Shown here piece by piece: positions 526 to 37,486 of a DNA stretch of 37,800 nt. The notes below the pieces were generated by a model. That model did not search any database. It saw only the letters and a list, made by a program, of their open reading frames with translations, and was not told the origin of the DNA. Where the stretch lies: positions 1-37,800 of IMG/VR virus record IMGVR_UViG_3300027969_000214; one strand, written 5' to 3'. Origin of the DNA: a virus. Its lineage: Duplodnaviria > Caudoviricetes. Position 1 is the first letter of the stretch; the number at the start of each line of letters is the position of its first letter. Position numbers and translations under genes: made by a program.

Positions 526-763
526 GAGTGCAGCATGGACGAGAAAAGAAGGCAAGAACCCGAATGGTGGTTTAAACGCCAAGGGCCGAGCCTCTGCCAA
601 AGCGCAAGGCATGAATTTGAAACCGCCCCAGCCAGAAGGAGGCTCCCGGCGAGACTCTTTCTGTGCGAGGATGAGTGGCATGAAAAAGAAGCTAACGAGC
701 GCCAAGACAGCCAACGATCCGGATTCACGCATCAATAAAGCTTTGAGGGCTTGGAATTGTTAG
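518..763 (+). CDS. Small basic conserved phage protein (GGLNAKGRAS...SFCARM; possibly DUF6321-like)
   Basis: 81 aa, Lys/Arg-rich, overlaps the upstream stop. Motif recalled from phage structural regions. Confidence 0.7.
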   Translation: MAKSAAWTRKEGKNPNGGLNAKGRASAKAQGMNLKPPQPEGGSRRDSFCARMSGMKKKLTSAKTANDPDSRINKALRAWNC

Positions 764-999
764 ATCTAAATACAGCATGGTCTGCCATCTTGTCATTAGT
801 GATTGGATTGTTAGGCTACATGATGAACGAAAAGTTCAGGGAACTGGCACGTGTCACGATCCTGTTGAACAAAACTCGTGAGGAGGTAGCTCGTGATAAC
901 GTTACTCAAGCAGAAATTGACCGCATTACAAGTCACATTGACCAACGCTTTAATAAGCTTGAAGAAAAAATTGACCAGCTTATTCGGCAAGGGAGATAA
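751..999 (+). CDS. Small membrane protein with N-terminal TM and C-terminal coiled coil
   Basis: Hydrophobic AWSAILSLVIGLLGYMM followed by heptad IDQRFNKLEEKIDQL. TTG start is uncertain. Confidence 0.7.
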   Translation: MELLDLNTAWSAILSLVIGLLGYMMNEKFRELARVTILLNKTREEVARDNVTQAEIDRITSHIDQRFNKLEEKIDQLIRQGR

Positions 1000-1370
1000 T
1001 GATGCCAAGTAGTTCTAAAAAACAAGCTGATTTCATGCGTGCGGTGGCCCACAGCCCATCATTCGCAAAGAAGACCGGAGTGCCCATGTCAGTGGGCAAA
1101 GACTTTTCAGCGGCTGATAAAGGCCGTAAATTTTCAAAAGGCGGCACTATGGCTAAGAGCGACATGAAAGAAGACATGGCCATGGACTTGAAACAAGATA
1201 AGTCTATGATGCAAAAGGCTGTAAACAAACATGAGAGCCGCCTGCACAAAGGCCAGCCCATGACCAAACTTGCAAAGGGTGGTTACACCCGTGCAGCAGA
1301 CGGCTGTGCCACTAAGGGTAAAACCAAGGGCACAATGATTACCATGAACAAGGGCGGAATGGCCTGCTAA
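999..1370 (+). CDS. Basic Lys/Met-rich protein with FSKGG/LAKGG/MNKGG and RAADG..KGKTKG motifs (putative internal virion protein)
   Basis: 123 aa ORF with GGAG upstream. Motifs are shared with neighbouring genes. Confidence 0.75.
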   Translation: MMPSSSKKQADFMRAVAHSPSFAKKTGVPMSVGKDFSAADKGRKFSKGGTMAKSDMKEDMAMDLKQDKSMMQKAVNKHESRLHKGQPMTKLAKGGYTRAADGCATKGKTKGTMITMNKGGMAC

Positions 1371-1379
1371 GGAGTTGAT

Positions 1380-2399
1380 ATGGCGACTAGAAAACCTATG
1401 AAGAAGTTTAAACGCTACGAAGGTGGCGGCGAAGTTATGGGCGAAATGGATCCCATGGAAGCCGCTGCTAAAAAACGTGGCCTAGAGATGTCAAACAAAG
1501 AAGCTCCTGTAGGCTTCTTTGAGCGTATCCGCGCAGGTAATATTGACCAGCCCGGTACAGAGGCGTACAACCGCTTTGGTGCTGGCCGTGGTAAAGCTGA
1601 GGCTCCCGCTCCTGTTACTGTGCGTCCTCCTGCAACGCCTGCAATGCCTGCCGCATCTTCACGTCCATTGTCTGATGACATGTATTCAGACTATGGCCCA
1701 AGTGCTGGCCGAAGTTCTAGTGAAACAATCACGCCTACACGTCCTATGGCTACTAAGCCTGTAGTGCCAGCTAAACCAACTGCCACGCCAGTACCTCCAT
1801 TAAGCACTGGTGGCCCTGATCGCAGTAGTTTAATTAACAAGCCTTCGTTAAATACCAACTACAGCAATGAAGGCCGTAACAAGCCTGCGCCAGCCGCTCC
1901 TACCAAGCCCACCATGGACACTAAAGCCATGAATGAGGATGCCAAAAAAGCTATGGCTGATGATCCAAGCTCTTTAATGGGTATGGCTGGAGCCGGTGCA
2001 GCAGCTTTGTTTGGCGCAAGCAAATTAGGCAAGATGTTTAAAGGCGCAAAGAACGCCGCCAGTGCTGGAAAAAGTTTAATTACATCTCCAGCGGCAAAGA
2101 GTGCCATGGGTAAAGCTGATGACGCAAAAGCAGCCTCAGCCTACGACAAGCTGAAGAAAAGCAGCTTTACCAAGGGCGACGATGTTACCGATGTAGTACC
2201 CAAATCTACTGCTATGAAGCAGTTAGGTAAGCCGACTGGCAAGAAACCATTGGATGAGTCTGATACTACAGGCGGCGCAATCGGCTACAAACGCGGCGGT
2301 AAGATGAAGAAGTATGCCTCCGGTGGAATGGTTTCATCTGCGTCTAAACGTGCTGACGGTATTGCCACTAAAGGCAAAACTCGTTGCAAGATTTGTTAA
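1380..2399 (+). CDS. Low-complexity Pro/Ala/Lys-rich protein with YEGGG/YKRGG/YASGG and C-terminal RADGIATKGKT
   Basis: 339 aa, TAAGGAG SD at 1368-1374. Confidence 0.75.
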   Translation: MATRKPMKKFKRYEGGGEVMGEMDPMEAAAKKRGLEMSNKEAPVGFFERIRAGNIDQPGTEAYNRFGAGRGKAEAPAPVTVRPPATPAMPAASSRPLSDDMYSDYGPSAGRSSSETITPTRPMATKPVVPAKPTATPVPPLSTGGPDRSSLINKPSLNTNYSNEGRNKPAPAAPTKPTMDTKAMNEDAKKAMADDPSSLMGMAGAGAAALFGASKLGKMFKGAKNAASAGKSLITSPAAKSAMGKADDAKAASAYDKLKKSSFTKGDDVTDVVPKSTAMKQLGKPTGKKPLDESDTTGGAIGYKRGGKMKKYASGGMVSSASKRADGIATKGKTRCKIC

Positions 2400-2408
2400 G
2401 GAACTATC

Positions 2409-2936
2409 ATGAGTCCAGCAGAAAAAGAAGCTCGTCAAGAGCAAGCCGACCGCAAAATGCGGGCACAGGCTGAAAAAGCTTACAACAAAGAAATGCCAGA
2501 ACCTGACACTACGTTTGGCAATTTAGGTAAAAAAGCAGTTGCAGCCACGATGGCTGTGCCTGCTGGCATAGCAGGGGCTACTTTGTTAGGTCTTCAGCCG
2601 GGCAGCCCCGGCATGATTGATTCTGCAAAATACGGCGCAAAGACCATGTATCACACTGTTATGGGTGATAAAAAATCCAACGACAAAGCTGAAAAAGATT
2701 ACATGGATTCGGCCAAACGCGCTCAAAGCATTGAGACTAAACGCAATACTGGTGAAGATACCAATGCTGCTGGTGACTCATACAAAAAAGGCGGCATGAC
2801 TGCCAAGTACCAGTCATTTTCCAAGACAGGTAAACCTGATGGCATGAAGAAAGTAACCAAGATGGCTAACGGTGGCTTTGTACGTGCTGCCGATGGGATT
2901 GCCCAGCGTGGCAAAACCCGTGGAAAGTTGGTTTAA
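2409..2936 (+). CDS. Hypothetical protein with YKKGG/MANGG and C-terminal RAADGIAQRGKTRG
   Basis: 175 aa, TAAGGA SD upstream. Confidence 0.75.
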   Translation: MSPAEKEARQEQADRKMRAQAEKAYNKEMPEPDTTFGNLGKKAVAATMAVPAGIAGATLLGLQPGSPGMIDSAKYGAKTMYHTVMGDKKSNDKAEKDYMDSAKRAQSIETKRNTGEDTNAAGDSYKKGGMTAKYQSFSKTGKPDGMKKVTKMANGGFVRAADGIAQRGKTRGKLV

Positions 2937-2938
2937 AC

Positions 2939-3412
2939 ATGATTGCCAGCCGTGGAATGGGAGCCATGCTCCCTAGCAAAATGCCCAAAGGTGTCAAGAA
3001 AGCCCGTCGGGATGACACTGACTTTACTCAGTACGCTGAAGGCGGCGAAGTGGAAGAAGAAACGTTACCTAGTGATGTTAAATTTAACGTACAACGTCCA
3101 CGTTTAAACCTTAAACAAAAAGAGTTGTCGGGTCGCTTAACTGCCGATACGCAACTTGGTGCTAACACATCTTTGCAAGGCTATTTAGATGGCGGTATTA
3201 ACAAGCGTGGCCCAAATGTTAAAGGGTTTGGTGTTAACCTAACTCATCGATTTGCCAAAGGCGGTGAAGTCTGGGATAAGCCAAGGCCTGAGGGTTTGGC
3301 TAAACCCAAGAAATTAGCGCCTGCAAAAAAAGCAAAAGCCAAGGCTATGGCTAAAGCCGCAGGCCGCCCATACCCAAATTTAGTTGATAACATGAGAGCG
3401 GCTAAGAAATGA
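2939..3412 (+). CDS. Basic hypothetical protein with an internal cassette between YAEGGEV and FAKGGEV
   Basis: 157 aa. C-terminus AKAAGRPYPNLVDNM, ATGA overlap with the next gene. Confidence 0.75.
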   Translation: MIASRGMGAMLPSKMPKGVKKARRDDTDFTQYAEGGEVEEETLPSDVKFNVQRPRLNLKQKELSGRLTADTQLGANTSLQGYLDGGINKRGPNVKGFGVNLTHRFAKGGEVWDKPRPEGLAKPKKLAPAKKAKAKAMAKAAGRPYPNLVDNMRAAKK

Positions 3413-4338
3413 CCACTACCGGCAGCACCCTCTTTAATCTTGACTTCACGGAAATTGCCGAGGAAGCATGGGAGCGTGCGGGCAGGGAGATGCGTTCAGG
3501 CTATGACTTGCGTACAGCACGCAGATCAATGAACCTAATGACCATTGAATGGCAGAACCGTGGTATCAACATGTGGACAATGGAGCAGGGTTTCATTAAC
3601 CTGACTCCGGGTCTGGCGACGTATGCTTTGCCTACAGACACAATTGATTTGTTAGAGCAGGTTATCCGTACAGGCCAGAACTCAGCATCCACACAGGCTG
3701 ACTTAACAATCACCCGTATTAGTGTTTCTACCTATGCGACCATTCCAAACAAACTCCAACAAGCCCGTCCAATCCAAGTCTGGGTTCAGCGTTTGTCTGG
3801 AGAAGTTAACCCAACGGCTGCGATTTTGGATGGAGCCATCACCTCCACGGCAACCACGATCACGCTTAACACGGTGGTTGGGTTAGCTGGATCAGGATTT
3901 ATTCGTTTAAACAGCGAAGACATCTATTACACCTACATATCAGGGAATACCCTAAGCGGTGTATTCCGTGGGCAGAACAACACAACTGCTGCTGCACAAG
4001 CGGATGGCACGGCTGTCTTTGTTCCTCAGCTTCCTGCGGTTACTGTCTGGCCTACGCCTGATAACAGCACGCCCTACCAGTTTGTTTACTGGAGACTGCG
4101 CCGGGTTCAAGATTCTGGCGCTGGTGTAGAAACAGCCGACATGAACTTCCGCTTCCTGCCCTGCCTTGTGGCTGGGTTGGCGTACCACATTGCCATGAAA
4201 GTGCCTGAGTTGATGCCTCGCCTTGAGATGCTCAAGGCTGCATACAACGAGCAGTTTGATCTGGCAGCCGGTGAAGACAGGGAGAAAGCCGCAATTCGGT
4301 TTGTGCCCCGTCAGCAGTTCATTGGTGGGAGTATGTAA
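3409..4338 (+). CDS. Head-tail adaptor / tail tubular A-like protein (P22 gp4 / T7 gp11 class) with inserted beta-rich domain
   Basis: EEAWERAG..SGYDLRTARRSMNLM..EWQNRGINMWT; VWPTPD; FLPCLVAGLAYHIAMK. Insert AILDGAITSTATTITL...RGQNNTTAAA. Confidence 0.65.
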   Translation: MTTTGSTLFNLDFTEIAEEAWERAGREMRSGYDLRTARRSMNLMTIEWQNRGINMWTMEQGFINLTPGLATYALPTDTIDLLEQVIRTGQNSASTQADLTITRISVSTYATIPNKLQQARPIQVWVQRLSGEVNPTAAILDGAITSTATTITLNTVVGLAGSGFIRLNSEDIYYTYISGNTLSGVFRGQNNTTAAAQADGTAVFVPQLPAVTVWPTPDNSTPYQFVYWRLRRVQDSGAGVETADMNFRFLPCLVAGLAYHIAMKVPELMPRLEMLKAAYNEQFDLAAGEDREKAAIRFVPRQQFIGGSM

Positions 4339-4721
4339 TGGGTAACCGATTTGCATCCGGCAAGATAGCGATTGCTGAGTGTGATCGGTGCGGCCAGCAA
4401 TACCAGTTAAAGAAGCTTAAGACTGAGGTCATTAAGCAGCGCCAGTATCAGTTGCTGGTGTGCCCAGAATGCTGGGATCCAGACCAACCGCAGTTAATGC
4501 TTGGTACGTTCCCAGTGGATGATCCTCAAGCTCTACGCAATCCGCGTAGGGATACAACATATGTCACCTCAGGTGTAAACGTTAATGGGTACACCTCAGG
4601 CGGTTCGAGGGATATTCAGTGGGGCTGGAATCCCGTTGGCGGGGCCAGTAATTTTGATGATGCGTTAACGCCAAACTACTTGGTGGCAACGACATTTGTT
4701 GGTACAGTTACAGTATCTTAA
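4338..4721 (+). CDS. Small Zn-ribbon (CxxC..CxxC) phage protein
   Basis: CDRCG and VCPECWD motifs; DPQALRNPR. Confidence 0.7.
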   Translation: MGNRFASGKIAIAECDRCGQQYQLKKLKTEVIKQRQYQLLVCPECWDPDQPQLMLGTFPVDDPQALRNPRRDTTYVTSGVNVNGYTSGGSRDIQWGWNPVGGASNFDDALTPNYLVATTFVGTVTVS

Positions 4722-4732
4722 GGAGTTTAAAC

Positions 4733-4921
4733 ATGGCTTACACACGATCAGCAGACGGCATTGCCAAAAAAGGCAAAACCGAAGGCACAAACCTTGGCAA
4801 CAGCGGCCCCACTCAGAAAGAAATGATGGGCGGCAAAGGCAAAGGTAAGGGCAAAACCAACGCCGACATGAAGTCTATGGGACGTGGTTTGGCAAAAATT
4901 GCAGCACAGAAGCGAGGCTAA
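4733..4921 (+). CDS. Small basic protein with N-terminal RSADGIAKKGKT motif
   Basis: 62 aa, AAGGAG SD then GTTTAAAC-ATG. Confidence 0.75.
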   Translation: MAYTRSADGIAKKGKTEGTNLGNSGPTQKEMMGGKGKGKGKTNADMKSMGRGLAKIAAQKRG

Positions 4922-4923
4922 TC

Positions 4924-5190
4924 ATGGCTACATTCAGCAAAAAGATGATGGGCAAAGAAGTTGGCGATGCCAAAGTCTATGCCAAGCCACACACTATGTC
5001 TGGCAAAGAAGTGAAAGCTTCTTCTACGCCCGGCAGTGGCCCTAACCGCAGCAATGCAGCCAATGTCGATATGTCTGTAGGCAACATCAGCCGTTCGGCT
5101 GGTAATGAAGCAGTCAAGACATCTGGCATTAAAGTCCGTGGTACTGGTGCAGCTACCAAAGGTTTGATGGCTCGTGGCCCAATGGCCTAA
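4924..5190 (+). CDS. Small basic protein (C-terminal RGTGAATKG..ARGPMA)
   Basis: 88 aa, GAGG SD upstream. Confidence 0.75.
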   Translation: MATFSKKMMGKEVGDAKVYAKPHTMSGKEVKASSTPGSGPNRSNAANVDMSVGNISRSAGNEAVKTSGIKVRGTGAATKGLMARGPMA

Positions 5191-5200
5191 GGTTTAAACG

Positions 5201-6052
5201 ATGGCAATGACATACGCCCAACTCGTGGCTGCGGTACAGGATTACACGCAGAACACGTTTGACACGACCACGATCAATACAATGATCAAGCAGGCGGAGC
5301 AGCGCATCTATAACACGGTGCAGATTGCCAACTTGCGTAAGAATGTCACGGGTGTACTGTCTACCGGCAATAAGTACTTGGCCTGTCCAGAAGACTTCCT
5401 GTCGGTATACAGCCTTGCCATATACCCTTACAACACCACGACTGCCACTGGCACGTCTGGTGCAAAGAGCATTGTTGTGACCAGTACTACCGGCGTGGCG
5501 TTAGGCCAGCAGGTTACGGGTACAAACATTGGAACTAATGCCATTGTGCGCGGGATCAGTGGAACAACAATCTATTTGACTGTAGCCAACAGCGGTACTG
5601 TGTCCACTACGGTCACCTTCCAAGGCGACTACCTGTACCTGCTTAACAAGGACGTTAACTTCGTCCGTGAGGCGTATCCATTGAGCGCAGTGGTGTCTGA
5701 GCCTAAGCATTACGCCATCTTTGGCCCGCAGTCTTCCAACGTCAATGAGTTGTCGTTCATCCTTGGCCCTACGCCAAATGCCAACTACTACGCTGAACTG
5801 CACTACTATTACTATCCAGAGTCTATTTGTACCACCACAACCACATGGCTGGGTGATAACTTTGACTCTGCATTGCTGTATGGCACGCTGTGCGAGGCCG
5901 GAACATACATGAAGAGCGCACCGGAAGACGGTATGTATAAGACGTACCAAGAACGGTACGTTCAGGCTATTGCTCTTCTCAAGAACTTGGGTGACGGCAA
6001 ACAACGTGCTGACGCTTACCGTGATGGTCAGATTAGGGTTCCTGTGGCATGA
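5201..6052 (+). CDS. Second head-tail adaptor-like virion protein with inserted Thr/Gly-rich beta domain
   Basis: MTYAQLVAAVQDY..IKQAEQRI; PEDFL; LGPTPNANYYAELHYYYYP; ALLYGTLCEA. Confidence 0.65.
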   Translation: MAMTYAQLVAAVQDYTQNTFDTTTINTMIKQAEQRIYNTVQIANLRKNVTGVLSTGNKYLACPEDFLSVYSLAIYPYNTTTATGTSGAKSIVVTSTTGVALGQQVTGTNIGTNAIVRGISGTTIYLTVANSGTVSTTVTFQGDYLYLLNKDVNFVREAYPLSAVVSEPKHYAIFGPQSSNVNELSFILGPTPNANYYAELHYYYYPESICTTTTTWLGDNFDSALLYGTLCEAGTYMKSAPEDGMYKTYQERYVQAIALLKNLGDGKQRADAYRDGQIRVPVA

Positions 6053-6465
6053 GTTACATCTTACAAACCCAAACGACCAGCTTTAAAACACAGCTTTATA
6101 CAGCCGTTCATAACCTATCCACGGATACGTTAAAGATTGCCCTGTACACGGCCAATGCTGATTTAAACGAGGCAACCACTGTTTACACGACTACCGCAGA
6201 GGTGACGGGTACAGGATACGTTGCAGGCGGGGTGGCCTTGACTGGTGTAACCATTAACTCGTCTGGCTCTACGGCTTATGTAGACTTTGCTGATGTAGTG
6301 TTTAACGCATCGGTTACGGCTCGTTGTGCGTTGATCTACAACGTCACGCAGGGTAACAAATCCATTGCTGTGTTGGACTTTGGGTCTGACAAAACCTCTA
6401 CCAATTTCACCATCACAATGCCTGCTAACACAGCGACCGCAGCATTGATTCGTTCTTCTAACTAA
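6049..6465 (+). CDS. Virion/tail-associated structural protein
   Basis: SFKTQL..DTLKIALYT..GYVAGG..VDFAD..ALIYN..VLDFGSDK pattern common in podoviral tail regions. Confidence 0.65.
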   Translation: MSYILQTQTTSFKTQLYTAVHNLSTDTLKIALYTANADLNEATTVYTTTAEVTGTGYVAGGVALTGVTINSSGSTAYVDFADVVFNASVTARCALIYNVTQGNKSIAVLDFGSDKTSTNFTITMPANTATAALIRSSN

Positions 6466-6474
6466 GGAGTCACC

Positions 6475-7038
6475 ATGACTATTGACAAAATGACTGCCAC
6501 CGACATGGTGCAAGCATCTACTAAATACAACACAATGCCTGAAGACTCTATGAGTATTGAGGGCTTTTACACTGCTGTCTGCCACGGCGCTGACGGTCAG
6601 CTTAAGTGGACAGAGCCTTTCTGCAACTTGGTCACTACAGTTGGCAAGAACTTTACGCTGGACACCACGCTGGGTAACACCGCTGGCGGCGCAGTTGTGA
6701 TGGGTCTTAAAGGTACAGGTACAGCAGTTGTAGCTGATACGCAAGCCTCTCACGCCACATGGTTAGAAGTTGGCCTAGCTAATGCTCCTACATACTCAGG
6801 CAATCGTCCTACACCATCATTTAGCGCGGCTTCTGCTGGTAGCAAGACAACATCTTCTGCGGTGTCGTTTTCCATTACCAGCACTGGCACTGTTGCAGGT
6901 TGCTTCATTAACATTGGTGGTAGCGCAACTAAAGACTCAACGACTGGCACATTGTTCTCCGCTGGAGACTTTTCTAGTTCTAAGTCTGTTGTTTCTGGCG
7001 ACACCATTGCTGTTACTTACACTGCTACATTGACTTGA
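6475..7038 (+). CDS. Virion/tail fibre-associated structural protein
   Basis: 187 aa, Thr/Ser/Gly-rich beta protein; TAAGGAG SD. Confidence 0.6.
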   Translation: MTIDKMTATDMVQASTKYNTMPEDSMSIEGFYTAVCHGADGQLKWTEPFCNLVTTVGKNFTLDTTLGNTAGGAVVMGLKGTGTAVVADTQASHATWLEVGLANAPTYSGNRPTPSFSAASAGSKTTSSAVSFSITSTGTVAGCFINIGGSATKDSTTGTLFSAGDFSSSKSVVSGDTIAVTYTATLT

Positions 7039-7039
7039 T

Positions 7040-8056
7040 ATGGCTGCTGGATGGGGTGATGGCGATTGGGGTGCTTTAGGCTGGGGTGGTGTTACCGCCT
7101 ACGAAGTCAGCATTACCGAGCCTCTCACCACATCCACAGCGTGGGGTGAAGATACTTGGGGGTCTGGTCTTTGGGGCGGTACAGTACCGTTTGAAGAAAC
7201 TCAGACTGTCCAGTTCACGGCTAATGCGTCTATAACTGAGACTGCGGCTATAGCGGATAGCCAGTCTGCAATCACTGCATTTTTGGGGTCTGTTACTGAA
7301 ACCGCAGCCATTACATCTACAGAGTCAGCTACGGCGGCGTTTGCGGCATCCATTACAGAGACAGCCGTAACATCCACTACGGAAGAAGCTACAGCCAACT
7401 TCCCAGTATCAATTACAGAAACATCGGTTACATCCACGACTGAGGAAGTGGCGGCAACATTTGCCAAATCAATTACTGAGACTGCGGCTACTTCTACAAC
7501 GGAATCTGTAGCGGCTACATTTGCTAGAACAGTGGTAGAAGCCATGTTGATTCAAGACAACATAACGGCTACAACAGCTTACACAGACACGGTTTCTGAC
7601 TCTTTAGAGACAAGTACAACGGAATCTGCCACGGCTAATTTCCCAGTCTCTATTACTGAGACTAACCCAATATCAACAGTTGAAGAGGCTGTTGCCACGT
7701 TCTTGGGTGATATTACCGAGTCAATGGCAATCTCAGAGCAGCAGTTGTTTGTCTGGCTGGCTGACATTATTGAAACAATGGCTACGTCTGACTCGACAAC
7801 GGTTGGAACGTATTACACAGAATTTATTGCAGAGCTTGCGGCTATCGCGGATAATCCACAGGCGGCTACTGCGTACAATGTAAGCACCTCGGATACGATG
7901 GCAATTACATCCACTGAAAATGGGCGTAATTTGTGGGAAGTAATAGATGACACCGAGACTGCAAACTGGCAAAATATCAGCAATCCACAAACACCGGGCT
8001 GGTCGGATGTTGATACCGTAGAAACGCCCGGTTGGACACAAATTTCTACTCAGTAG
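7040..8056 (+). CDS. Acidic Thr-rich repeat protein (putative fibre shaft)
   Basis: N-terminal WGxxxWGxxxWGG twice, about 12 repeats of 20 aa (xxSITETAxxxSTExxxAxF), C-terminal 11-aa Trp repeats. Confidence 0.65.
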   Translation: MAAGWGDGDWGALGWGGVTAYEVSITEPLTTSTAWGEDTWGSGLWGGTVPFEETQTVQFTANASITETAAIADSQSAITAFLGSVTETAAITSTESATAAFAASITETAVTSTTEEATANFPVSITETSVTSTTEEVAATFAKSITETAATSTTESVAATFARTVVEAMLIQDNITATTAYTDTVSDSLETSTTESATANFPVSITETNPISTVEEAVATFLGDITESMAISEQQLFVWLADIIETMATSDSTTVGTYYTEFIAELAAIADNPQAATAYNVSTSDTMAITSTENGRNLWEVIDDTETANWQNISNPQTPGWSDVDTVETPGWTQISTQ

Positions 8057-8065
8057 GAGCAATAG

Positions 8066-8887: not shown

Positions 8888-8896
8888 GGAAACATC

Positions 8897-9295
8897 ATGG
8901 CAAATCCAAATATTGCTGGCAGTTCAACCACAATTTACGGTGTAACAACCTATCTAACACCATCTGCAACTACAGCCGTAGTGCTTCTTCCTAACGCTGC
9001 TTCTAGCGGTACAGTGATGAAGATTAACCAGATCGTGGCAGCTAATGTGAACGGCTCTGCGGCAGTTAACACAACTGTGTCTATCTACACCAACGGTGCA
9101 GTAGCTCAAGGTTCTGCTCCTAGCAGTGGTACGGCATACCCAATTGTTTCAACCGCTTCCGTCCCTGCTACGGCTTCATTGGTTGTTGTGGACAAAACAT
9201 CAGCTTTGTATCTGATGGAGGGTTCTTCAATCACTGTTACATCCGGCACAGCCAGCGGCATTACCTACAGCATCAGCTATGAGTTGATAGCGTAA
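8897..9295 (+). CDS. Tail fibre-associated small beta protein
   Basis: MANPNI...KINQIVAANVNG...LYLMEG...SYELI, directly after the fibre gene. Confidence 0.6.
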   Translation: MANPNIAGSSTTIYGVTTYLTPSATTAVVLLPNAASSGTVMKINQIVAANVNGSAAVNTTVSIYTNGAVAQGSAPSSGTAYPIVSTASVPATASLVVVDKTSALYLMEGSSITVTSGTASGITYSISYELIA

Positions 9296-9307
9296 ACGGA
9301 GGCAATC

Positions 9308-10189: not shown

Positions 10190-10195
10190 GGTTAT

Positions 10196-11971: not shown

Positions 11972-11982
11972 TTGGATTAAAA

Positions 11983-12195: not shown

Positions 12196-12200
12196 AGTTT

Positions 12201-13678: not shown

Positions 13679-13687
13679 GGATCAAAC

Positions 13688-14047: not shown

Positions 14048-14048
14048 C

Positions 14049-25428: not shown

Positions 25429-25429
25429 T

Positions 25430-26389: not shown

Positions 26390-26398
26390 GGTTTAAAC

Positions 26399-27310: not shown

Positions 27311-27319
27311 GGGTTCGCT

Positions 27320-29062: not shown

Positions 29063-29065
29063 GAC

Positions 29066-32000
29066 ATGGCAATTTATCAGTACACCGCTCCTGATGGGCA
29101 CAAGTATCGTGTAGAGGCTCCAGAGGGCGCTACTGATCAACAGGTGTATGGATTAGTGGTGCAAAATTATCCGTATGCGGGGCAAACTACCAAAGAACTT
29201 GAAGAGACTAAGCGTGCACCGAGCACCATCAAGGACATTGGTCTAGGTGGCCTAGGAGCGTTGGCCGGTGGCATACAAGGCTTGACAAACATTGCCGGTG
29301 TAGATAACCCAGTCTCCAAAGGCTTGGGATCTATACAGCAATACGCACAAGAAAATCTTAGCCCTGCTCGTCAGGAAGAGTTAGCCATTCAAGGTGAATT
29401 AGAAAGCCGTGCTCAAGGCACTGGTTTGGCTAACGAAGTTGGCACTGGCATACGTCGGTTTACACAGGCTCCTGTACAGGGCACGGTAAACGCATTGCTT
29501 GGCAGTGCTCCTATCATTGCTGCGGGTTTTATCCCCGGTGGGCAAGCCGCCGCAGGCGCAAGCCTAGGAGCCAGAGTATTGGCTGGAGCACGTGGAGCCA
29601 CTGGTATCGGTGGTTTGATGGGCGTTGGTGGTCAGAAAGGTCAAGACTACGAAGCAGTTAAACAAGCCTTGTTGGACAAGGGTTTAGACCCAGCTATTGC
29701 AGAACAAAGAGCGTTAGAGGCCTCTGCATATTCATTACAGAATGCTCCACGTCAACTTCTTGCTGGCGGTGCTGGTGCAATGGAAGGCATGTTTGGTGTT
29801 GAGCAAGCTTTGGCTAATGCTGCCAAGAAAGTCAGCAAATCTACCGGCGCAGCAGCATTGGATGCCCCTACGTTTAAACGTGCTGTTGGAACATCTGTGC
29901 TGGGTGAAGGCGTACCTGAAGCCATTCAAGCTGGTGTTGGTCAAATTGGAACTAACGTAGCTTTAAACCAGTCTGGTATTAACACCGATCTCACTGAAGG
30001 CTTGGCCGGTACAGTTGCACACGATGCTTTAGTTGGCTCTGTATTGGGTCTTGCTGTTTCTCCTGTGCAGATGTCTAATTTGCAACGTGAATACAAACAA
30101 TCAAAAGCCGATGAACAAGCTAGAAAGCAAGCTGAAACTGACGCACAAATACAAGCTGCGACACAAAAGGCAGAAGCCGAGCGTGCTGTTCTTCAGAAAC
30201 AGACCGATGACATCCAAAAGCAAATGGAGCAACAGCAAGCTATTGCTTTGCCTGCACCGGCTGAGGAAATCCCCGTTGAAGAAGTACAGACCGATCCGCT
30301 CAAGAATCCTTTAGGCAACATCCGTAAGAGCGAAGTTCCTTTTGACATCTACAAACAAATTGATGAGTACCGCAAAGGTGCTGGCCTTCCCAAGCTCAAG
30401 GAGTACTCGATTGAGGACTTTGTGGATTCTATGCCGGGGCAGAACCCCAAGGCAGAGCAAGGCCTATTGGATGAGCTTATCACCGCCAAGTCTGGTTATG
30501 CCGGTGAGAAGTACACCGCACAAGACATCCTAAATCAAGCCAAGCTGAAGAACGTAGACACCAGTACCAAAGGTTTCAAAGATTTCTTAGCTAGAACCAC
30601 TGGTGCAAGCGCACTGGAACAGATGTCTCAGCCGCAGCTACATGCTGCGTTTAAAGCGTTAAACAACCTGCCAGCATCGGAAGGTTTAAACATCCTGCCC
30701 GAAGGCACAAACGCACGCCGGTTTGATGAGAAGCAATACGACAAAGCCATCAAGGGTGTAGACTTTTTGTTGGCAGAACTGGGCGTTCCTGTAGATCCTA
30801 AGGAAGTCATCAAGACCATCAAGGAATACACGAACCTTACAGAAGACTCCCATGCCGGAGCTATTCTAGATACAGCCATTAAGAACGGTGACGTTGACCT
30901 GATCAAGACACCTCGCTATGAGATCTATGATCCCAAGACGGGAACTGCCCTTCCGTCCACCTACACATCTAGGACTGCTGCACGCGCTGCGGCAGCCAAG
31001 CGTGGTTTAAACGTTAGGCAGATTACAACAGATGCCATCGCTGCCCCCGCCACCTCCGCCACGCTGCCCGAAGGATTTGACATCCGCGAAGGTGCGTTTA
31101 AAGAGGGTGAAGCTCCAGCAGGTTACGACGTGCTGGCCGGTGAAGAAGTGCTGTTTAAAGCTAACACAGTCGAAGAAGCCAACGCCAAAAAGGACAGCTT
31201 TGAGCGTACCCGTGCCGGTATGGCTAACGCCCGTGAGAATCAAATCACGCAGTTGAACAACGCCATCGAAGCAAGCCAAAAGCGTTTAACCACCATGGAG
31301 GCTCAGGGCAAAGGTCAGACGACCGGTTACCAAAAGGCCGCCGGTAAGCATGCCAAGCTGGTCGCAGACACTCAGGCAAAGATTGCCGCCCTGACAGAAG
31401 AGATCAAGAAGTTTGATCCTAAGGTCACTGCGCTTGCAGTCAAGCCAACAGGCACTAAAGCCATTGGCCGTAAGGGCTACACGGTGTTTGAACAGGGTCA
31501 GGCACGTGCTACATATCCATCCCGTCAAGCGGCTGAAGAAGGCATCTTGGCCGACATGGATGAGAAGCAACTGCAAGAGTTGACTCAGCAACAAGGCCGT
31601 CGGGCGGTTGGTAAGAAGGCTCAGGCTGAACTGGAACGCAGAACTGCACCCAAGCCTACAGAAGGTAAGCCTGTGTCTGAGGTTCTGGAAGGCATTGAAA
31701 CTGAAGCCAAAGCCGCCAAGGCAAAGGCTGAAGCGGCCAAAGAGACACCCGGCCTCAAAGAGAAGATGGCGGCTGTCGAAGCCCAACTCAAACCCATCCT
31801 CAAGAAGTTTGGCCTTGGTGATGTCAAGCTGAACCTTGTTGAGAAGCTGGACTCAGAAGGCTCCTACAACGAGAACCTGATCAAGATTGCCTTGGAAGAA
31901 AAAGAACCAGTGCGTATCTTGCGCCATGAGGCTTTGCACGCTCTAAAGGATTTAAACTTCTTTACGCCTCAGCAGTGGAATGCGCTTGAGCGCATGGCTA

Positions 32001-35000
32001 AGAGCGATTGGACTGACAAGTATCTGAAGAAGAAGATTGTTGAGCACAAGGGCAAGCGCATGTCTGCCTATGATGCTTATGTTGACATCTACAACAATGA
32101 CATGGCTAAGGTTACAGAAGAAGCCATTGCTGAAGCCTTTGCTGACTTTGCCAATAACAAGCCACCAGCAGGAATGCTGGCTGCACTACTCAAACGTTTA
32201 AACGACTTCTTCACTGCGCTGCGTAATGCACTGAACGGTGCTGGTTTTCAGACTTACGAAGATGTGTTTGGCAAGATTGAGCGTGGCGAACTGTCTCAAA
32301 AGCCAAGCGCATGGAAGGCTAACGACAAAGTTAAAGATGATGCGGTCAAGTACTCCATGAAGTTTGGGATTGATCCGTATACCTCTGAAGGTCAGATCAA
32401 CGTTCCGTTGGATGGCGACAACACACGCTTCTCCATCAAGCAACCCTATGATCAGAAGAAACTTAGCAAAGACGAGACATTAAAGAACGACCCAATTACA
32501 GGTCTGCCTTTAAACGCTAACGGCACAGTGACGTTGTACTACCCAACGACCAACGAGTCGGCTAGGGATCTTGCTGAAACCCGCAAGCTCAAGGGCCACT
32601 CGCCTACAGCCAACCGCATCTACTTGACCAACGAGTCCAGTTCGGCTGCGATCACAAACAAGCCCGGCATGATTGATCAACCTGTGGGTGGTGCGAACGT
32701 ATTGCTACAAGTAGATCCATCTGTGATCCATTTGTTAGAAGAGCACTCAGATGGCCGGAAAGATTTCTTTATCCCAATCGCAGAAGGTAAAGCGTTTGAG
32801 AAGAAGATGGCTCAGACCAAGCTGTTTACACTCAATGCGCCGCGTACCAAAGGCCTACACCCTGACCGCACTCTGAAGCAAGTTACGACCGCAGTAAACG
32901 ATGCGGCCACTAAGTGGGCTAACTCTTCTGCGGCAGATCGTCGCATCATGGCACGTAATGCCAAAGATGTGCTCCGTGCAGAGCACAACATCAGTCGCTT
33001 GTTTGGTGCTAACTCCAAGCTGGAGAAGACCAATATCGGTGAATACGGCCTGACATACAACGGCAAGAAGGTCATGTCCACAGGACTTGGCTTTGCTTCA
33101 GCACAGAAGATCAATGACGAGCAACGTGCCACCACATGCCCTCAGTCAGGCATCTGCGAGGACTTGTGCCTTGGAGAAACCTCTGGACAGAACTTGCTGT
33201 ACGGTGGCGAAGGCCAGTGGCGCTCAGGCCCACGCCTGTCTCAGTACTTAAAGACTGAGGCTCTAGTGGTAAACCCTGAGGCGTTTGCCATTGCCATGAT
33301 CAAGCAGATTGAATCATTCCGCAAGGCAGCACGGGATTTGGATTACCACCCGGCTATTCGTTTAAACGTTACATCTGACTTCAACCCTAGCACGTTTGAG
33401 AACATTATCAACATGTTCCCTGATGTGACCTTCTACGACTATACAAAGCTAGATACCAAGCCAATCGCACCTAATCATCATTTGACCTATAGCTCAACTG
33501 GTGCATCGCAGGTTGTTGATAAGAAGACGATCTTTAACAAGTTCTCTAATTGGGATCGCATGGTAGACAAGATTCTGCCTAGCGGTCGCAATGTGGCTAT
33601 GGCGTTTACAAGCCGCTCATCCATGCCTAAGTTTGTTAAGGACGAAAGAACTGGCAAAACGTTTGAGGTGTGGAATGGTGATGAGTACGATGCTCGTTTC
33701 CTTGACCCAGTCAAAGAAGGCGGTGACGGCTTAATCATTGGCCTGACCAACAAGGACAACACCACCAAGCCTGAGGATGCGGCAGAGAAGCACAATGGCT
33801 TCTTCCTTGATTACGATCCTGAGCGTGATGGCGATACATTGGTTATCCCCAACCAAGAGAAGCTAAAAGGCGACCAAGGTCAGCCAGTTACATTTTCTAA
33901 GAAGCCACGGTTTAGCTTGCGTAGCGTTCCACCAGAGCCGGGCACAGAACCAATTCCACAAGGCATGGTTCGGTTGTACCACCAAACAGACGGGCAGTCT
34001 CTAGACAAGATTGCCAAAGAAGGTTTGTCAATCAAGTACGCCAAAGGCATTGAAGGCCCGAAGGCTATTTATGCCGGAGAGCAACCATTCTATGGCGCGG
34101 CAGACTCACGCCCAACGTTAGAGTTCTTTGTGCCTAAAGCGCAGTGGGATGCTCCATTTGTGCTTGAGGATGTTAAGCCTGAACAGATCATTGCGGCTCA
34201 TTACCCTTGGCATAAAACTGCTCGTTACTTGGAATCTGAGCCACAGTCTATGCAATCTGCATTAGACGGCCAATATGATGATTTAAAAGATCCAGACACA
34301 TCTAAGGCCGTGGAGTACATCAAAGAAAAGTACAGCAAGACTGATGAGCGTATGAGCCTGCGTGATGCGCCGGAAACGCCTGAGTTTAAACAGTTCTTTG
34401 CTGGCAGCAAGGTTGTTAATGAAGATGGCTCCCCCAAAATCATGTACCACGGTACAAACAAAGATTTCAATGAGTTTGTTATTGCTGAAAAAGCAAATAG
34501 AACAGGAATGCCTGACGGCTTTTATTTCACATCCGATATAGACGATGCAAACCGATACGCAAAAGGTGAAGGCGCTAACGTTATTCCTGTGTATCTAAGT
34601 ATTAAAAATCCATTTAACCTTGGCGAGAAAAATAAAATCTCCAAAGAAATGGTTATGCAGTTTAGGGATGAATTACGTGCAGACAACCCCGACCTACCGT
34701 TTAGTTGGATACAAGAAAAAGTTGCTATTTTTAAAGAAAATACTGCCGCCGGTAGGTTTCCGTTTCCCAGTATTAGTTTCCCTACAGCAGCAATGCAACG
34801 GGTGTTTGAAGTTGGTGGCTACGATGGTTTGATTGACGGGGGTAGAGTTTTTGTTGCTTTTAATTCCAATCAAGTTAAGTCTGCAATTGGCAATACTGGT
34901 GCGTACAGCAAGTACAACCCTGATGTGCGCTACAGCTTGCGTGAATCCACTGACCCGGACACTGTTAGCCGTGTAAACGCAACAACGACTACCCGCGAAG

Positions 35001-37486
35001 AGAAGGGCTATGCCGAGCGCATAACTAAAGCTTTGAGCGGTGATTCATTCTCTGCATTGCGTGCTGAGGCGTTAAATCGCTACAACCGACTGGCCGACGT
35101 AGATAAAGCTGTGGTTAAGAAGAGGGGCGGCGCGGCCTTGATGGCTGATGAAAGCGCAGAGGCTGGAGCCTTGCAGTCTGACTTAGCCGCAGGGGTTACC
35201 GCATCTGTGTTGGGTGTACACGACCGCAACGGTGGTATCCCTGTGTACGCCAATGGCGTGACCAAAGCCTTCAATGACAATGGGAAGATCAAAGGCCCAG
35301 TGGCTATCTTTGCGCCTTTGTCTAAATACAATGACCCATACATCTACCAGCTTTACCAGTTCTGGGCTGCTGCCCAGCGCGGATCTCGTTTAAACGAACA
35401 AGGCCGTCCCGACATCTTTACTGACGCAGATCTCGTAAAAGCCCAGCAGTTGGAAAAAGACCATCCTGAGTTCCGTCAGATCCAAGCCGAATGGAATGTT
35501 TACAACAACGGCTTGATGCAATTCTTAGTGGACACAGGCGTGTTGTCAGAAGGTGACCGCGCTAGGTTCACTGAGTATTCAGATTACATCCCGTTCTATC
35601 GTCAGATGGAAGGCGAGAAGACCATCGGGCCAAACTTGTTCCAGTCTATTTCTGGTGTCAAGAAGCCTAAGAAGCTCAAAGAGGGCGAAGACAAAGCGCC
35701 TTTGGCTGATTTCTTGGAAACCATTGTCCGTAACACGCAGTCATCTATCCAGATGGGTATGAAGAACGTTGCGGCACAGCGTGCCATCGACAGGGCGTTG
35801 GAAATTGAGATGGCTGAGAAGTTGCCACCCAACTCCAAAGCAGGACTTGACACAGTTCAGGTGCTAGAAAAAGGCCAAGTCGTTACTTATCAAGTAGCTG
35901 ATCACTTGTTCATCAACGCTGTTAAGAGTTTAAACATGCCAGAGTTGCCGTTCATCGGCCTGCTTTCTGGCCCGGCCAACTTTTTGAGGAACATGGTGAC
36001 CAAAGATCCCGGATTTATGTTGGCTAACATGGTTCGAGACTCAATGGCGGCATACGTAACTAGCGGTGTCAAGATGACTCCCATCGCAGATACTGTGTCA
36101 AACTTTGGCAAAGCCATGGCAGGCACATCCCCAGAATTTGAGGCGCTTTTAAACGCTGGTATTGGTGGCGGCTACGAGTTCTCTCAGAACATTGAGATGA
36201 GCGCCAAGGCGTTTGAGAAAGAGCTTAATAAAAAGTACGAAGGCAAGACGTTGTTCCAACGCATCTTGAATCCAATGAGCGCACCTACAGCTTTGTGGGA
36301 AGCTTTGGAAAAAGGTACAACTGCGTCTGACATGGCGACAAGGATGGAGGTGTATAAACGCACCTTAGCCGAGACTAACAACGAGGCAGAAGCTCTGCAC
36401 CGCGCCCTTGAGGTGATGAACTTTAACCGCAAAGGTAGCTCTCCGGTCATCCGTATTCTGACTGCGGCCATCCCGTTCTTAAACGCCCGTATGCAGGGTC
36501 TGGACGTGCTCTATAGAGCGTCGTTTGGCGAGATGAATAACAAAGATGCGGCCATGATTCAGAAACGTTTCATTGTCCGTGGCCTGACCATGGCCGCTCT
36601 GTCAGCCATGTACTGGACGCTGACTCATGATGACGATGAGTACAAGAAACAAGAACAGGAAACCAAAGACAACAACTGGCTTGTCCCATCCTTGGGCATC
36701 AAGATCCCAATCCCGTTTGAGATTGGTGTGATCTTCAAGGTGATCCCTGAGCGGATTATGGCTTTGACCTTAGGCCAAGACACAAACAAAGACTTCATGG
36801 ACTCTATGGCTAGGAATCTGCGTTCAACACTGGCCATTGACTACTTGCCACAGGCTATCAAGCCTTTTGTGGAGACAGAGACTAACTTCTCCCTGTTTAC
36901 ACGCAGACCTATTGTTGGCCAAGGTTTAGAAGGCGTTGCCCCGGAGTACCAAGTTGGCCCCGGAACATCGTCTGCCGCCGCCGCTTTAGGTTCTCAATTA
37001 GGCATGTCGCCCATGAAGATCGACCACTTGATTCAGGGCTACACCGGAACAATGGGCATGTACATGGTCAGCGCCTTGGACGGAATCATGAACATGAATG
37101 CCGAGAACCCTAATGCGTCTAAACGCTTTGAGCAGTTGCCATTCATCAAACGCTTTGCGCTGGATCCAGAGGCCAGAGGTACAGTCACCAGCTACTACGA
37201 TTTGAAGAACGCCACAGATGAAGTGGTCAGAACATCAAGCTTGCTTGAGCGCACCATGAACTTTGAGGAACGTAACAAGTTCATGAAGGAAAACATCAAG
37301 ATGCTTGCCACTAAAGATTACATCCTAGACCTTGAGAAGACCATGAAAGAGTTCCGTCAGGCTCAGGTCATGATCCGTAGTTCCAAGATGGATGCGGATG
37401 CCAAGCGAGATGCGCTCCTAAGAATCAACCAAGCTCAGAATGCCTTGACGGCTAATATCAACTTCCTCAAGTCGAACATAATGTGA
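29066..37486 (+). CDS. Giant polyvalent ejection protein: HExxH metallopeptidase-like, ART-like, GP88-like, ART-like, ART-PolyVal-like and LPD38-like domains
   Basis: RHEALH..EEAIAEAF; TCPQSGICEDLC..RLNVTSD..FYDYTK; RLYHQT; TPEFKQFFAGSKVV..MYHGT..GFYFT..VYLSIKNP..GYDG; IKIPIPFEIG..PQAIKPFVE. Confidence 0.75.
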   Translation: MAIYQYTAPDGHKYRVEAPEGATDQQVYGLVVQNYPYAGQTTKELEETKRAPSTIKDIGLGGLGALAGGIQGLTNIAGVDNPVSKGLGSIQQYAQENLSPARQEELAIQGELESRAQGTGLANEVGTGIRRFTQAPVQGTVNALLGSAPIIAAGFIPGGQAAAGASLGARVLAGARGATGIGGLMGVGGQKGQDYEAVKQALLDKGLDPAIAEQRALEASAYSLQNAPRQLLAGGAGAMEGMFGVEQALANAAKKVSKSTGAAALDAPTFKRAVGTSVLGEGVPEAIQAGVGQIGTNVALNQSGINTDLTEGLAGTVAHDALVGSVLGLAVSPVQMSNLQREYKQSKADEQARKQAETDAQIQAATQKAEAERAVLQKQTDDIQKQMEQQQAIALPAPAEEIPVEEVQTDPLKNPLGNIRKSEVPFDIYKQIDEYRKGAGLPKLKEYSIEDFVDSMPGQNPKAEQGLLDELITAKSGYAGEKYTAQDILNQAKLKNVDTSTKGFKDFLARTTGASALEQMSQPQLHAAFKALNNLPASEGLNILPEGTNARRFDEKQYDKAIKGVDFLLAELGVPVDPKEVIKTIKEYTNLTEDSHAGAILDTAIKNGDVDLIKTPRYEIYDPKTGTALPSTYTSRTAARAAAAKRGLNVRQITTDAIAAPATSATLPEGFDIREGAFKEGEAPAGYDVLAGEEVLFKANTVEEANAKKDSFERTRAGMANARENQITQLNNAIEASQKRLTTMEAQGKGQTTGYQKAAGKHAKLVADTQAKIAALTEEIKKFDPKVTALAVKPTGTKAIGRKGYTVFEQGQARATYPSRQAAEEGILADMDEKQLQELTQQQGRRAVGKKAQAELERRTAPKPTEGKPVSEVLEGIETEAKAAKAKAEAAKETPGLKEKMAAVEAQLKPILKKFGLGDVKLNLVEKLDSEGSYNENLIKIALEEKEPVRILRHEALHALKDLNFFTPQQWNALERMAKSDWTDKYLKKKIVEHKGKRMSAYDAYVDIYNNDMAKVTEEAIAEAFADFANNKPPAGMLAALLKRLNDFFTALRNALNGAGFQTYEDVFGKIERGELSQKPSAWKANDKVKDDAVKYSMKFGIDPYTSEGQINVPLDGDNTRFSIKQPYDQKKLSKDETLKNDPITGLPLNANGTVTLYYPTTNESARDLAETRKLKGHSPTANRIYLTNESSSAAITNKPGMIDQPVGGANVLLQVDPSVIHLLEEHSDGRKDFFIPIAEGKAFEKKMAQTKLFTLNAPRTKGLHPDRTLKQVTTAVNDAATKWANSSAADRRIMARNAKDVLRAEHNISRLFGANSKLEKTNIGEYGLTYNGKKVMSTGLGFASAQKINDEQRATTCPQSGICEDLCLGETSGQNLLYGGEGQWRSGPRLSQYLKTEALVVNPEAFAIAMIKQIESFRKAARDLDYHPAIRLNVTSDFNPSTFENIINMFPDVTFYDYTKLDTKPIAPNHHLTYSSTGASQVVDKKTIFNKFSNWDRMVDKILPSGRNVAMAFTSRSSMPKFVKDERTGKTFEVWNGDEYDARFLDPVKEGGDGLIIGLTNKDNTTKPEDAAEKHNGFFLDYDPERDGDTLVIPNQEKLKGDQGQPVTFSKKPRFSLRSVPPEPGTEPIPQGMVRLYHQTDGQSLDKIAKEGLSIKYAKGIEGPKAIYAGEQPFYGAADSRPTLEFFVPKAQWDAPFVLEDVKPEQIIAAHYPWHKTARYLESEPQSMQSALDGQYDDLKDPDTSKAVEYIKEKYSKTDERMSLRDAPETPEFKQFFAGSKVVNEDGSPKIMYHGTNKDFNEFVIAEKANRTGMPDGFYFTSDIDDANRYAKGEGANVIPVYLSIKNPFNLGEKNKISKEMVMQFRDELRADNPDLPFSWIQEKVAIFKENTAAGRFPFPSISFPTAAMQRVFEVGGYDGLIDGGRVFVAFNSNQVKSAIGNTGAYSKYNPDVRYSLRESTDPDTVSRVNATTTTREEKGYAERITKALSGDSFSALRAEALNRYNRLADVDKAVVKKRGGAALMADESAEAGALQSDLAAGVTASVLGVHDRNGGIPVYANGVTKAFNDNGKIKGPVAIFAPLSKYNDPYIYQLYQFWAAAQRGSRLNEQGRPDIFTDADLVKAQQLEKDHPEFRQIQAEWNVYNNGLMQFLVDTGVLSEGDRARFTEYSDYIPFYRQMEGEKTIGPNLFQSISGVKKPKKLKEGEDKAPLADFLETIVRNTQSSIQMGMKNVAAQRAIDRALEIEMAEKLPPNSKAGLDTVQVLEKGQVVTYQVADHLFINAVKSLNMPELPFIGLLSGPANFLRNMVTKDPGFMLANMVRDSMAAYVTSGVKMTPIADTVSNFGKAMAGTSPEFEALLNAGIGGGYEFSQNIEMSAKAFEKELNKKYEGKTLFQRILNPMSAPTALWEALEKGTTASDMATRMEVYKRTLAETNNEAEALHRALEVMNFNRKGSSPVIRILTAAIPFLNARMQGLDVLYRASFGEMNNKDAAMIQKRFIVRGLTMAALSAMYWTLTHDDDEYKKQEQETKDNNWLVPSLGIKIPIPFEIGVIFKVIPERIMALTLGQDTNKDFMDSMARNLRSTLAIDYLPQAIKPFVETETNFSLFTRRPIVGQGLEGVAPEYQVGPGTSSAAAALGSQLGMSPMKIDHLIQGYTGTMGMYMVSALDGIMNMNAENPNASKRFEQLPFIKRFALDPEARGTVTSYYDLKNATDEVVRTSSLLERTMNFEERNKFMKENIKMLATKDYILDLEKTMKEFRQAQVMIRSSKMDADAKRDALLRINQAQNALTANINFLKSNIM

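Follow-up and report, generated by a model that had tools for sequence, protein, structure and literature searches.

The octameric palindrome HIP1 (GCGATCGC) of cyanobacteria is over-represented in all coding frames and is a host-chromosome trait linked to methyltransferases, and the virion nick motifs of T5, phiKMV and tf/LUZ24 are words at which packaged DNA carries single-strand breaks. Palindromic operators are mostly read by dimers, the plasmid regulator KorB belongs to the ParB family, and the proteases SPRTN and Wss1 bind DNA without sequence specificity and need catalysis. Here, a dispersed array of the palindrome GTTTAAAC is described in a 37,800-nucleotide stretch of viral DNA (Duplodnaviria; Caudoviricetes; IMG/VR record IMGVR_UViG_3300027969_000214, positions 1 to 37,800; hereafter the window), together with a candidate reader of this word, a SprT-like protein encoded by relatives of the phage. 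Among described arrays, the stoperators of Cluster A phages (those of L5 gp71 and the TipsytheTRex repressor) are presented in the cited sections of their source as asymmetric 13-mers located in intergenic gaps and oriented with transcription, and their repressor as a monomer with helix-turn-helix (HTH) and Stoperator domains (PMC9283540).

The present array resembles the stoperators, as those sections describe them, in that more than 20 dispersed sites would serve one phage protein (24 in the window and 39–54 per complete gene-positive relative, with the reader predicted), in that some sites lie in promoters and most elsewhere, and in that specificity diversifies between related phages. In contrast to them, GTTTAAAC is an 8-bp palindrome with a variant found in both orientations, it lies mostly inside codons, with coding DNA wholly enclosing 19 of the 24 sites, and the candidate reader is a zincin domain plus zinc ribbon predicted to form a homodimer instead of a monomeric HTH protein. 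Since symmetry, position and fold all differ, the array is not a member of the Cluster A stoperator system. It shares with HIP1 the octameric palindrome in all coding frames, but GTTTAAAC is restricted to mobile elements, where it goes with one of their own genes; no HIP1-type chromosome-wide enrichment was found in five gene-carrying bacterial genomes. The candidate reader has the minimal zincin fold with HExxH and the small C-terminal zinc-binding module of SPRTN and Wss1 (6MDW/6MDX, 5XBN) and of the 'SprT-like protease' of AZ and EH phages. Unlike for SPRTN and Wss1, the evidence here points to a specific octamer, and catalysis appears to be lost in some carriers. On IncP-1 plasmids, KorB and KorA are reported in the cited part of the source to silence over long range from sites away from promoters, with KorB acting as a sliding clamp (PMC11790492). 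The SprT-like protein would likewise be an element-encoded regulator with sites off promoters, and its gene also lies beside parA on plasmids; no KorB-type (ParB-family clamp) fold was present among its fold matches. No paper on phage arrays of GTTTAAAC or GTGTAAAC, or on a binding site for the SprT-like protein, was found in the literature outside subscription journals, and 'TAAAC' has 0 occurrences in the main text of bioRxiv 10.1101/2025.05.26.655371 and PMC7302621. A protein known as an annotated protease is thus proposed here as a candidate sequence-specific reader.

The palindrome array in the window

The window contained exactly 24 copies of GTTTAAAC, the first at 570 and the last at 35928–35935, in agreement with the first-pass annotation of this DNA, which had counted at least 24 against about 0.6 expected. 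Dinucleotide-preserving shuffles of the window gave a mean of 0.64 and a maximum of 5 copies, and none of 100 shuffles reached 24. Under a second-order Markov model, GTTTAAAC was the top octamer (24 versus 0.8). At Markov orders 3–6, the both-strand count of 48 compared with 4.1, 11, 28 and 46, an excess that shrinks with order because the models are trained on the word's own sub-words. When codons were shuffled synonymously within genes (1000 times), the mean was 1.7 and the maximum 8, versus 19 coding copies observed, and of the 26 positions in the window at which the peptide permits GTTTAAAC, it occupied 19. The codon-shuffle excess and this usage together indicate that selection acts on nucleotides, and the GTTTAAAC array in the window is kept by selection at the DNA level. 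The comparison with Markov and codon-shuffled models that the first-pass annotation had proposed therefore gave a divided answer, with the enrichment surviving codon shuffling and fading at Markov orders 5–6, while its claim that the word is no by-product of one peptide was borne out. The reading frames it had named were also recovered, with 12 sites read as x-Leu-Asn, 7 as x-Phe-Lys and 2 at Val-stop junctions, in addition to 3 intergenic sites. An ATG start followed 0–1 nt after 5 of the 24 sites (p about 1e-9 versus uniform placement). No consensus longer than GTTTAAAC was found, only a flank bias (YGTTTAAACR).

The sites were shared with relatives and present in other assemblies. G006, the closest complete relative (82.5% nucleotide identity over 24 kb), retained 13 of the 15 alignable coding GTTTAAAC sites of the window. 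Contig pieces from public freshwater runs that matched with zero differences bridged 6 of the 12 sites in 25000–37800 (among the pieces listed; one run may be the source sample), which refutes an assembly artefact.

One-mismatch variants had been noted earlier at 194, 6161, 19701 and 21680, and all four are real. In the window, the outer-base variants (194..32515) comprised 12 copies of CTTTAAAC/GTTTAAAG (2.1 in shuffles) and 6 of ATTTAAAC/GTTTAAAT (2.2 in shuffles; 16 of 1000 shuffles reached 6), and they are likely weaker sites. A further word, GTGTAAAC/GTTTACAC, had been missed; its 12 copies (1.9 in shuffles) start at 4573, 6181, 11006, 16226, 16669, 18460, 23352, 25976, 29458, 32824, 34971 and 36895 (span 4573..36902), and actinobacterial carriers of the SprT-like gene use it as their main word. 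The asymmetric variant word occurred in both orientations (9:3 in the window) and on both strands in Yang, Zeta1847 and JackieB. The variant ATTTAAAT at 16596–16603 abuts ATG 16604, as the five start-proximal exact sites do.

Other words were also inspected. The Chi-like word GGTGGTGG was rejected as a second signal, since glycine codons explain it (28 versus 20.9 under codon shuffling). Ten GC-rich 6-bp palindromes (CAGCTG, GCCGGC, CTGCAG, GGCGCC, GGTACC, GCTAGC, TGCGCA, GCGCGC, CCGCGG and ACGCGT), each expected 4–30 times after codon shuffling, were wholly absent from the coding DNA of window 1–37486, and CGCG and TCGA were strongly depleted there. These absences and depletions reflect heavy restriction-site avoidance, and GTTTAAAC therefore runs counter to a genome-wide avoidance of palindromes. 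The six of the ten that were counted in four gene-positive relatives were nearly absent there too.

The SprT-like gene as candidate reader

The window is the structural arm of a lake podophage of about 63 kb; its genes specify proteins of the adaptor, the tail, lysis and ejection, along with a polyvalent protein of 2806 aa. Its best cultured matches were distant 53–65 kb phages such as DSL-LC04 and HTVC023P, and its uncultured relatives are about 63 kb long. Profile searches detected a SprT-like gene in all four word-rich relatives and in none of six word-poor ones; Pfam PF10263 alone misses the gene in G004 and G011, and a custom profile detects both. Among the eight relatives at least 90% complete, the four with the gene held 39–54 copies of GTTTAAAC and the four without it 0–5. 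The word filled 70–76% of its peptide-permitted places in the window and the four gene-positive relatives, 0–5% in five of the six gene-negative relatives and 24% in the sixth (G018). The word-rich relatives have in common an early arm with the small terminase, the SprT-like gene, a MoxR-type AAA gene, a vWA gene, primase-helicase, exonuclease, Sak and the HNH gene that ends the window, and the window phage in all likelihood carries the SprT-like gene in its missing early arm. In a second set of 25 records picked by primase, 23 had the gene, among them all ten that were at least 90% complete. Nine of these ten held 24–52 copies of GTTTAAAC, and the tenth, with QVTR at the QxTR motif of the protein, held 5 and was enriched in ATGTAAAC/ATTTACAC. 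A rank test on complete genomes (p 0.002) is not relied on, because kin are not independent.

Other features of the early arm were noted as well. Clusters of 4–6 DnaA-box-like words lie between the small terminase and the SprT-like gene (G004:18142–18282, G006:16327–16428 and G007:39182–39322) and may be a host-DnaA origin; no DNA polymerase match was found in the early arm scanned, that of G006. Gene-negative relatives carry other early-arm palindrome arrays, namely AACTAATATTAG(T) 13 times in G020:29469–47569 and a TATTAACA-nn-TGTTAATA-type site array in G021:4559–13181.

Homologs of the gene occurred in 164 GenBank phage records and 79 plasmid records, and the protein class comprised about 2,900 clusters at 50% identity. 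Word counts covered 14 whole phage records, of which GenBank supplied 12 and the other 2 were uncultured. All ten with QxTR[ML] and a zinc ribbon had GTTTAAAC or GTGTAAAC above expectation: GTGTAAAC in Yang (20 versus 0.08), Zeta1847 (22 versus 0.08), JackieB (41 versus 0.05) and 4A (13 versus 0.22), and GTTTAAAC in R5C (17 versus 0.04), Mica (7 versus 0.09), Mano (4 versus 0.14), PT1 (6 versus 0.74), ECO1230-10 (5 versus 0.97) and G034 (3 versus 0.08). The four records with a rewritten C-terminal domain (Dismas, MW2, Epa5 and G033) had 0–1 copies. In G033 (L213–L215), where the linker is also longer, a degenerate 10-mer around TTAA (GTATTAAGAC-like) was enriched, a possible further specificity switch. 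From 198 loci dereplicated to 38 clusters, the 35 with loci of at least 5 kb were tested and three short ones left out. GTTTAAAC/GTGTAAAC was enriched (p<0.01) in 24 of the 35, with 232 copies seen versus 13 expected, and five control word pairs were enriched in none.

Plasmids and bacterial chromosomes were also represented. Three plasmids were examined. Plasmid pDB-3 had 7 sites versus 0.06 expected, all in the backbone and several intragenic; pBSY17_4 had 2, and a Ralstonia plasmid, whose homolog has the altered motif QTRRH, had 0. On sphingomonad plasmids (L324, L333, L356, L578 and L580), parA and a ribbon-helix-helix gene follow the SprT-like gene, which holds a site within its own coding sequence; the relaxase gene has further sites. 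In two bacterial genomes, sites crowded within 30–37 kb around the SprT-like gene, 19 of 21 in Streptomyces (6.5 Mb) and 18 of 44 in Arthrobacter (4.2 Mb), and in a Sphingobium genome 6 of the 7 GTTTAAAC copies were around the gene. A second cluster in the Arthrobacter genome, 7 GTGTAAAC in 19 kb (G066:C4:1365980–1384725) away from the known prophage, is perhaps a second carrier element.

The array word changes together with the QxTR motif of the SprT-like protein. With QPTR, G063 had 20 ATTTAAAC in a 21.7-kb locus and 0 GTTTAAAC in its record (20–21 per 20 kb in G063 and its kin), L481 had 13 ATTTAAAC, and G054 had 12 ATTTAAAC versus 7 GTTTAAAC in 17.7 kb. L363, a distant QPTR homolog in a bacterial assembly, had two A-variant sites at most 150 nt upstream of the gene. 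The QGTR sisters of G063, 62–64% identical, retained GTTTAAAC. In a tree of the peptidase domain only (63 rows), the QP carriers fell at three places apart from each other, one of them within a supported clade rich in QG. The QVTR carriers G045 and G061 favoured ATGTAAAC/ATTTACAC.

The structure model of the SprT-like protein (predicted local distance difference test, pLDDT, 96.7) comprised a zincin domain and a C-terminal zinc ribbon. Its best fold matches, of middling Z, were Wss1 (5XBN, Z 8.0, root-mean-square deviation 3.1, 102 aligned), abylysin (Z 7.7) and SPRTN (Z 7.6), and the N-terminal domain is predicted to be a Wss1/SPRTN-like minimal zincin fold. By sequence, the PF10263 (SprT-like) profile scored 21.2 bits against a cut-off of 25.6 (E 2.7e-4), PHROG 6361 ('unknown function') matched with E 1e-34, and no solved structure was matched to the profile (best E 0.06). 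Modelled by itself and without an alignment (pLDDT 75.6), the C-terminal domain had only generic matches to zinc ribbons, with Z at most 3.2. A symmetric homodimer was supported by prediction, with an interaction score (ipSAE) of 0.65 versus 0.00 for the best control, runs agreeing in at least 95% of contacts and pLDDT of at least 87; 20 of 30 solved homodimers passed the mark used, as did 1 of 23 single chains. The predicted dimer suits the palindromic GTTTAAAC, because dimer reading is established for most palindromic operators. In the predicted model, QGTRM (residues 151–155) is absent from the listed dimer interface, and N-terminal residues lie inside it. HExxH is intact in G006 and lost in G004, G011 and 11 of 23 further carriers. 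It was lost at least twice in the phage family, where dead-form carriers still hold 36–54 copies; denser arrays in protease-dead carriers were not clearly seen. Across 150 representatives of the protein, 134 keep HExxH. The SprT-like peptidases of jumbo phages are, in the cited passage, only presumed to cut host proteins (PMC7824862).

Function of the array and competing explanations

On the evidence of counts, word switches and models, the SprT-like protein very probably binds GTTTAAAC. The earlier proposal of a DNA-level signal is supported as the site of a phage protein, narrowed to one candidate reader, and its other options are left without support. The reading preferred here, with a rough probability of 0.55, is that the 24 palindromes are dispersed operators for a phage-encoded, homodimeric, autoregulated SprT-like repressor acting genome-wide. 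The C-terminal zinc ribbon would read GTTTAAAC. The protein would be made first, limit its own synthesis and then fill about 50 sites per 63-kb genome. Occupied promoter sites would block initiation, and start-codon and intragenic sites would act additively as roadblocks in either orientation, keeping expression low during a carrier or lysogenic state or setting the timing of the late genes. Given binding, such a role of the start-codon and intragenic sites appears somewhat better than an even bet. The peptidase domain would serve at least as a dimer scaffold, and where HExxH is intact, repression might, speculatively, be released by self-cleavage.

A repressor with dispersed operators is favoured by upstream sites, by promoter spacers and by the plaque literature. 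A site lies just upstream of the SprT-like gene in Mica, Mano, PT1, ECO1230-10, G034, Yang, JackieB and Zeta1847, and a variant site in G006, the usual mark of autoregulation. In Zeta1847, 9 of 22 sites fell in −35/−10 spacers versus 0.08 expected (relaxed scan), as did one JackieB site. AZ phages are described in the cited part of the source as lysogenizing without any repressor being known, and the SprT-like protein is one of four named candidates for this missing immunity repressor (bioRxiv 10.1101/2025.05.26.655371). According to the same part, Liebe, with a 33-aa N-terminal truncation of the SprT-like gene, forms clear plaques and Maureen turbid ones. Zeta1847 and EH phages are given, in the section cited, as turbid, with an integrase and without a repressor (PMC7302621).

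Several observations weigh against this reading. The SprT-like gene lies outside the 37.8-kb fragment, so that the link rests on relatives such as G006. In the window's family the early arm is inherited as a block, and therefore the family split alone cannot single out the SprT-like gene; because the gene rides with the whole arm, only the cross-lineage and residue-level tests do so. Site 15554 is also retained in six word-poor loci. Among the 35 clusters, 11 were without enrichment; most of the 11 had one site, as a rule within the gene or next to it. Two loci clearly break the rule, L231 (QTTRL) with no copy in 20.5 kb and L553 with none in 9.9 kb. The QVTR carrier L268 does not follow the word of G045, and GTGTAAAC is the word of G057 despite an ordinary QSTR motif, so the residue-to-word code is incomplete. 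In the window's group, 0 of 36 sites fell in spacers of sigma-70-like promoters in the relaxed scan, and the strict scan gave 2 of 36 versus 1.7 expected. No tyrosine or serine integrase was found in the five complete relatives. Most GTTTAAAC sites are intragenic, and one small dimer is usually a weak roadblock inside genes. In the part of the source cited, Liebe and Maureen differ by three further changes besides the truncation (bioRxiv 10.1101/2025.05.26.655371).

The same reader could instead act as a guard, its dimers every 1–4 kb protecting the element's DNA, by cleavage or obstruction, from host proteins that cover it or move on it (silencers, structural maintenance of chromosomes (SMC)-type or restriction translocases, or DNA-protein crosslinks), with promoter sites only for autoregulation. 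The Wss1/SPRTN-like fold (Z 8.0), the retention of HExxH in 134 of 150 representatives, the pDB-3 backbone sites (7 versus 0.06), and Mica, with no more than 7 sites and with HTH regulators besides, speak for such a guard, as does a site spacing more even than random in Yang (coefficient of variation, CV, 0.44; 0 of 5000 simulations), JackieB (0.56; p 0.0002) and R5C (0.61; p 0.03). However, neither the window nor its four complete relatives departed from random spacing (the window beyond 25 kb looks regular, CV 0.47, in a stretch chosen after looking), the at least two losses of HExxH left arrays of 36–54 copies, and word switches would suit immunity-type diversification better than a fixed host target, which makes the guard rather unlikely. 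That dimers of the same reader organize, compact or tether element DNA for replication or segregation is improbable: the gene follows 4–6 DnaA-box-like words in G004, G006 and G007, directly precedes parA near a rep gene on plasmids, and a site is conserved between Mica and Mano at the beginning of a gene that carries a ParB-like annotation in Mica, but such a role predicts neither the Zeta1847 sites between −35 and −10 nor the Liebe/Maureen plaque difference, and the G011 array is without a DnaA-box cluster.

The SprT-like gene might also merely hitch-hike while a host factor, a methyltransferase or a virion nick or packaging signal accounts for the word. Inheritance with the whole early arm and the 5 copies of G018 without the gene fit this, but the carriers span podo-, sipho- and myoviruses and plasmids, and the word follows one residue of the SprT-like protein. 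The host factor offered by the first-pass annotation loses ground because chromosomes are not enriched, sites crowd near the gene (19 of 21 in Streptomyces, 18 of 44 in Arthrobacter), and the word is concentrated in the mobile element and changes with the element's own gene. Its modification site found no support either, as methyltransferases of the two families searched, PF01555 and PF02086, were found in none of five complete relatives, and a nick, packaging or ejection landmark is disfavoured by relatives with closely similar head, tail and terminase genes that hold 0–5 copies and by plasmids that carry the word. This group of explanations is thus quite improbable. A compositional or assembly artefact, to which the fading excess at Markov orders 5–6 might point, deserves next to no weight: models of these orders contain the word itself, and codon shuffling, ortholog conservation and the public-run contigs support the sites.

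If the SprT-like protein is the reader, a G-to-P change at QxTR would move its preference to ATTTAAAC, and the G006 protein would prefer CGTTTAAACG over CAAATTTG and single-base variants, with GTGTAAAC second. The model names a protein, an 8-bp site and a specificity change predicted for one residue, and can be tested in cultured phage-host pairs. It also makes testable which protein confers immunity in the temperate AZ phages of Arthrobacter and the turbid EH/Zeta1847 phages of Microbacterium, whose repressor is missing. A SPRTN/Wss1-fold protein would then be a sequence-specific DNA binder, and phages and plasmids would shape codon choice to build an array for the predicted binding. It is conceivable, if doubtful, that a widespread mobile-element class exists in which a Spartan/Wss1-type protease has been turned into a sequence-addressed dimer with a re-programmable zinc-ribbon reader, as a repressor with its own switch or as a defence-clearing protease. 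In that case the element would write the address into its own codons, and one protein would be either the missing AZ/EH-type immunity repressor together with its own protease switch, or a DNA-anchored protease clearing host defence proteins off the element's own DNA.

Sites and genes of the window

The first copies of GTTTAAAC lie at the left end: 570..577 in gene 518–763 (DUF6321; Gly-Leu-Asn), 1406..1413 in gene 1380–2399 (Lys-Phe-Lys-Arg), 2931..2938 over the Val-stop of 2409–2936 and abutting ATG 2939, 3102..3109 in gene 2939–3412 (Arg-Leu-Asn), and 3905..3912 in the SU10-adaptor-like gene 3409–4338. The copy at 4725..4732 has a ribosome site upstream and ATG 4733 downstream, and that at 5192..5199 ends 1 nt before ATG 5201 of a further SU10-adaptor-like gene. 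Several of the small basic genes in 999–3412 and 4733–5190 (+) end in ADG-x-A-x-(K/R)GKT(K/R)G and have internal K-x-A-x-GG repeats, and they possibly encode processed virion proteins.

No exact copy was found between 5200 and 15363; four paralogous glycine-rich tail-like genes (9308–14840, +; PHROG 2295), with few peptide-permitted places, lie inside this 10-kb gap. Beyond it, 15364..15371 covers the Val-stop of 15130–15369 and abuts ATG 15372, 15554..15561 lies in gene 15372–16097 (Pro-Phe-Lys-Leu), 17438..17445 in the endolysin gene 17034–17477, 17890..17897 in the virion structural gene 17481–19565, 21668..21675 in gene 19909–25428, and 25794..25801 in gene 25430–26389. The copy at 26391..26398 abuts ATG 26399 of a DNA ejection protein gene, and two more lie in gene 27320–29062, at 28237..28244 (Ala-Phe-Lys-Gln) and 28591..28598 (Ala-Phe-Lys-His). 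Eight copies (29872, 30684, 31005, 32196, 33360, 34384, 35388 and 35928; span 29872..35935) are in the gene of the 2806-aa polyvalent protein (29066–37486, +), which has GP88, ART-PolyVal and LPD38 domains, differs from G006 in the ART region and is probably ejected. The HNH/DUF968 gene at 37467..37760 (−), where the missing early arm starts, is, in the set compared, common only to the four reader-gene-positive relatives. In gene 19909–25428 (+), an NTNPTV peptide is repeated in tandem about 12 times at 24600–24950, after long Ala-rich repeats.

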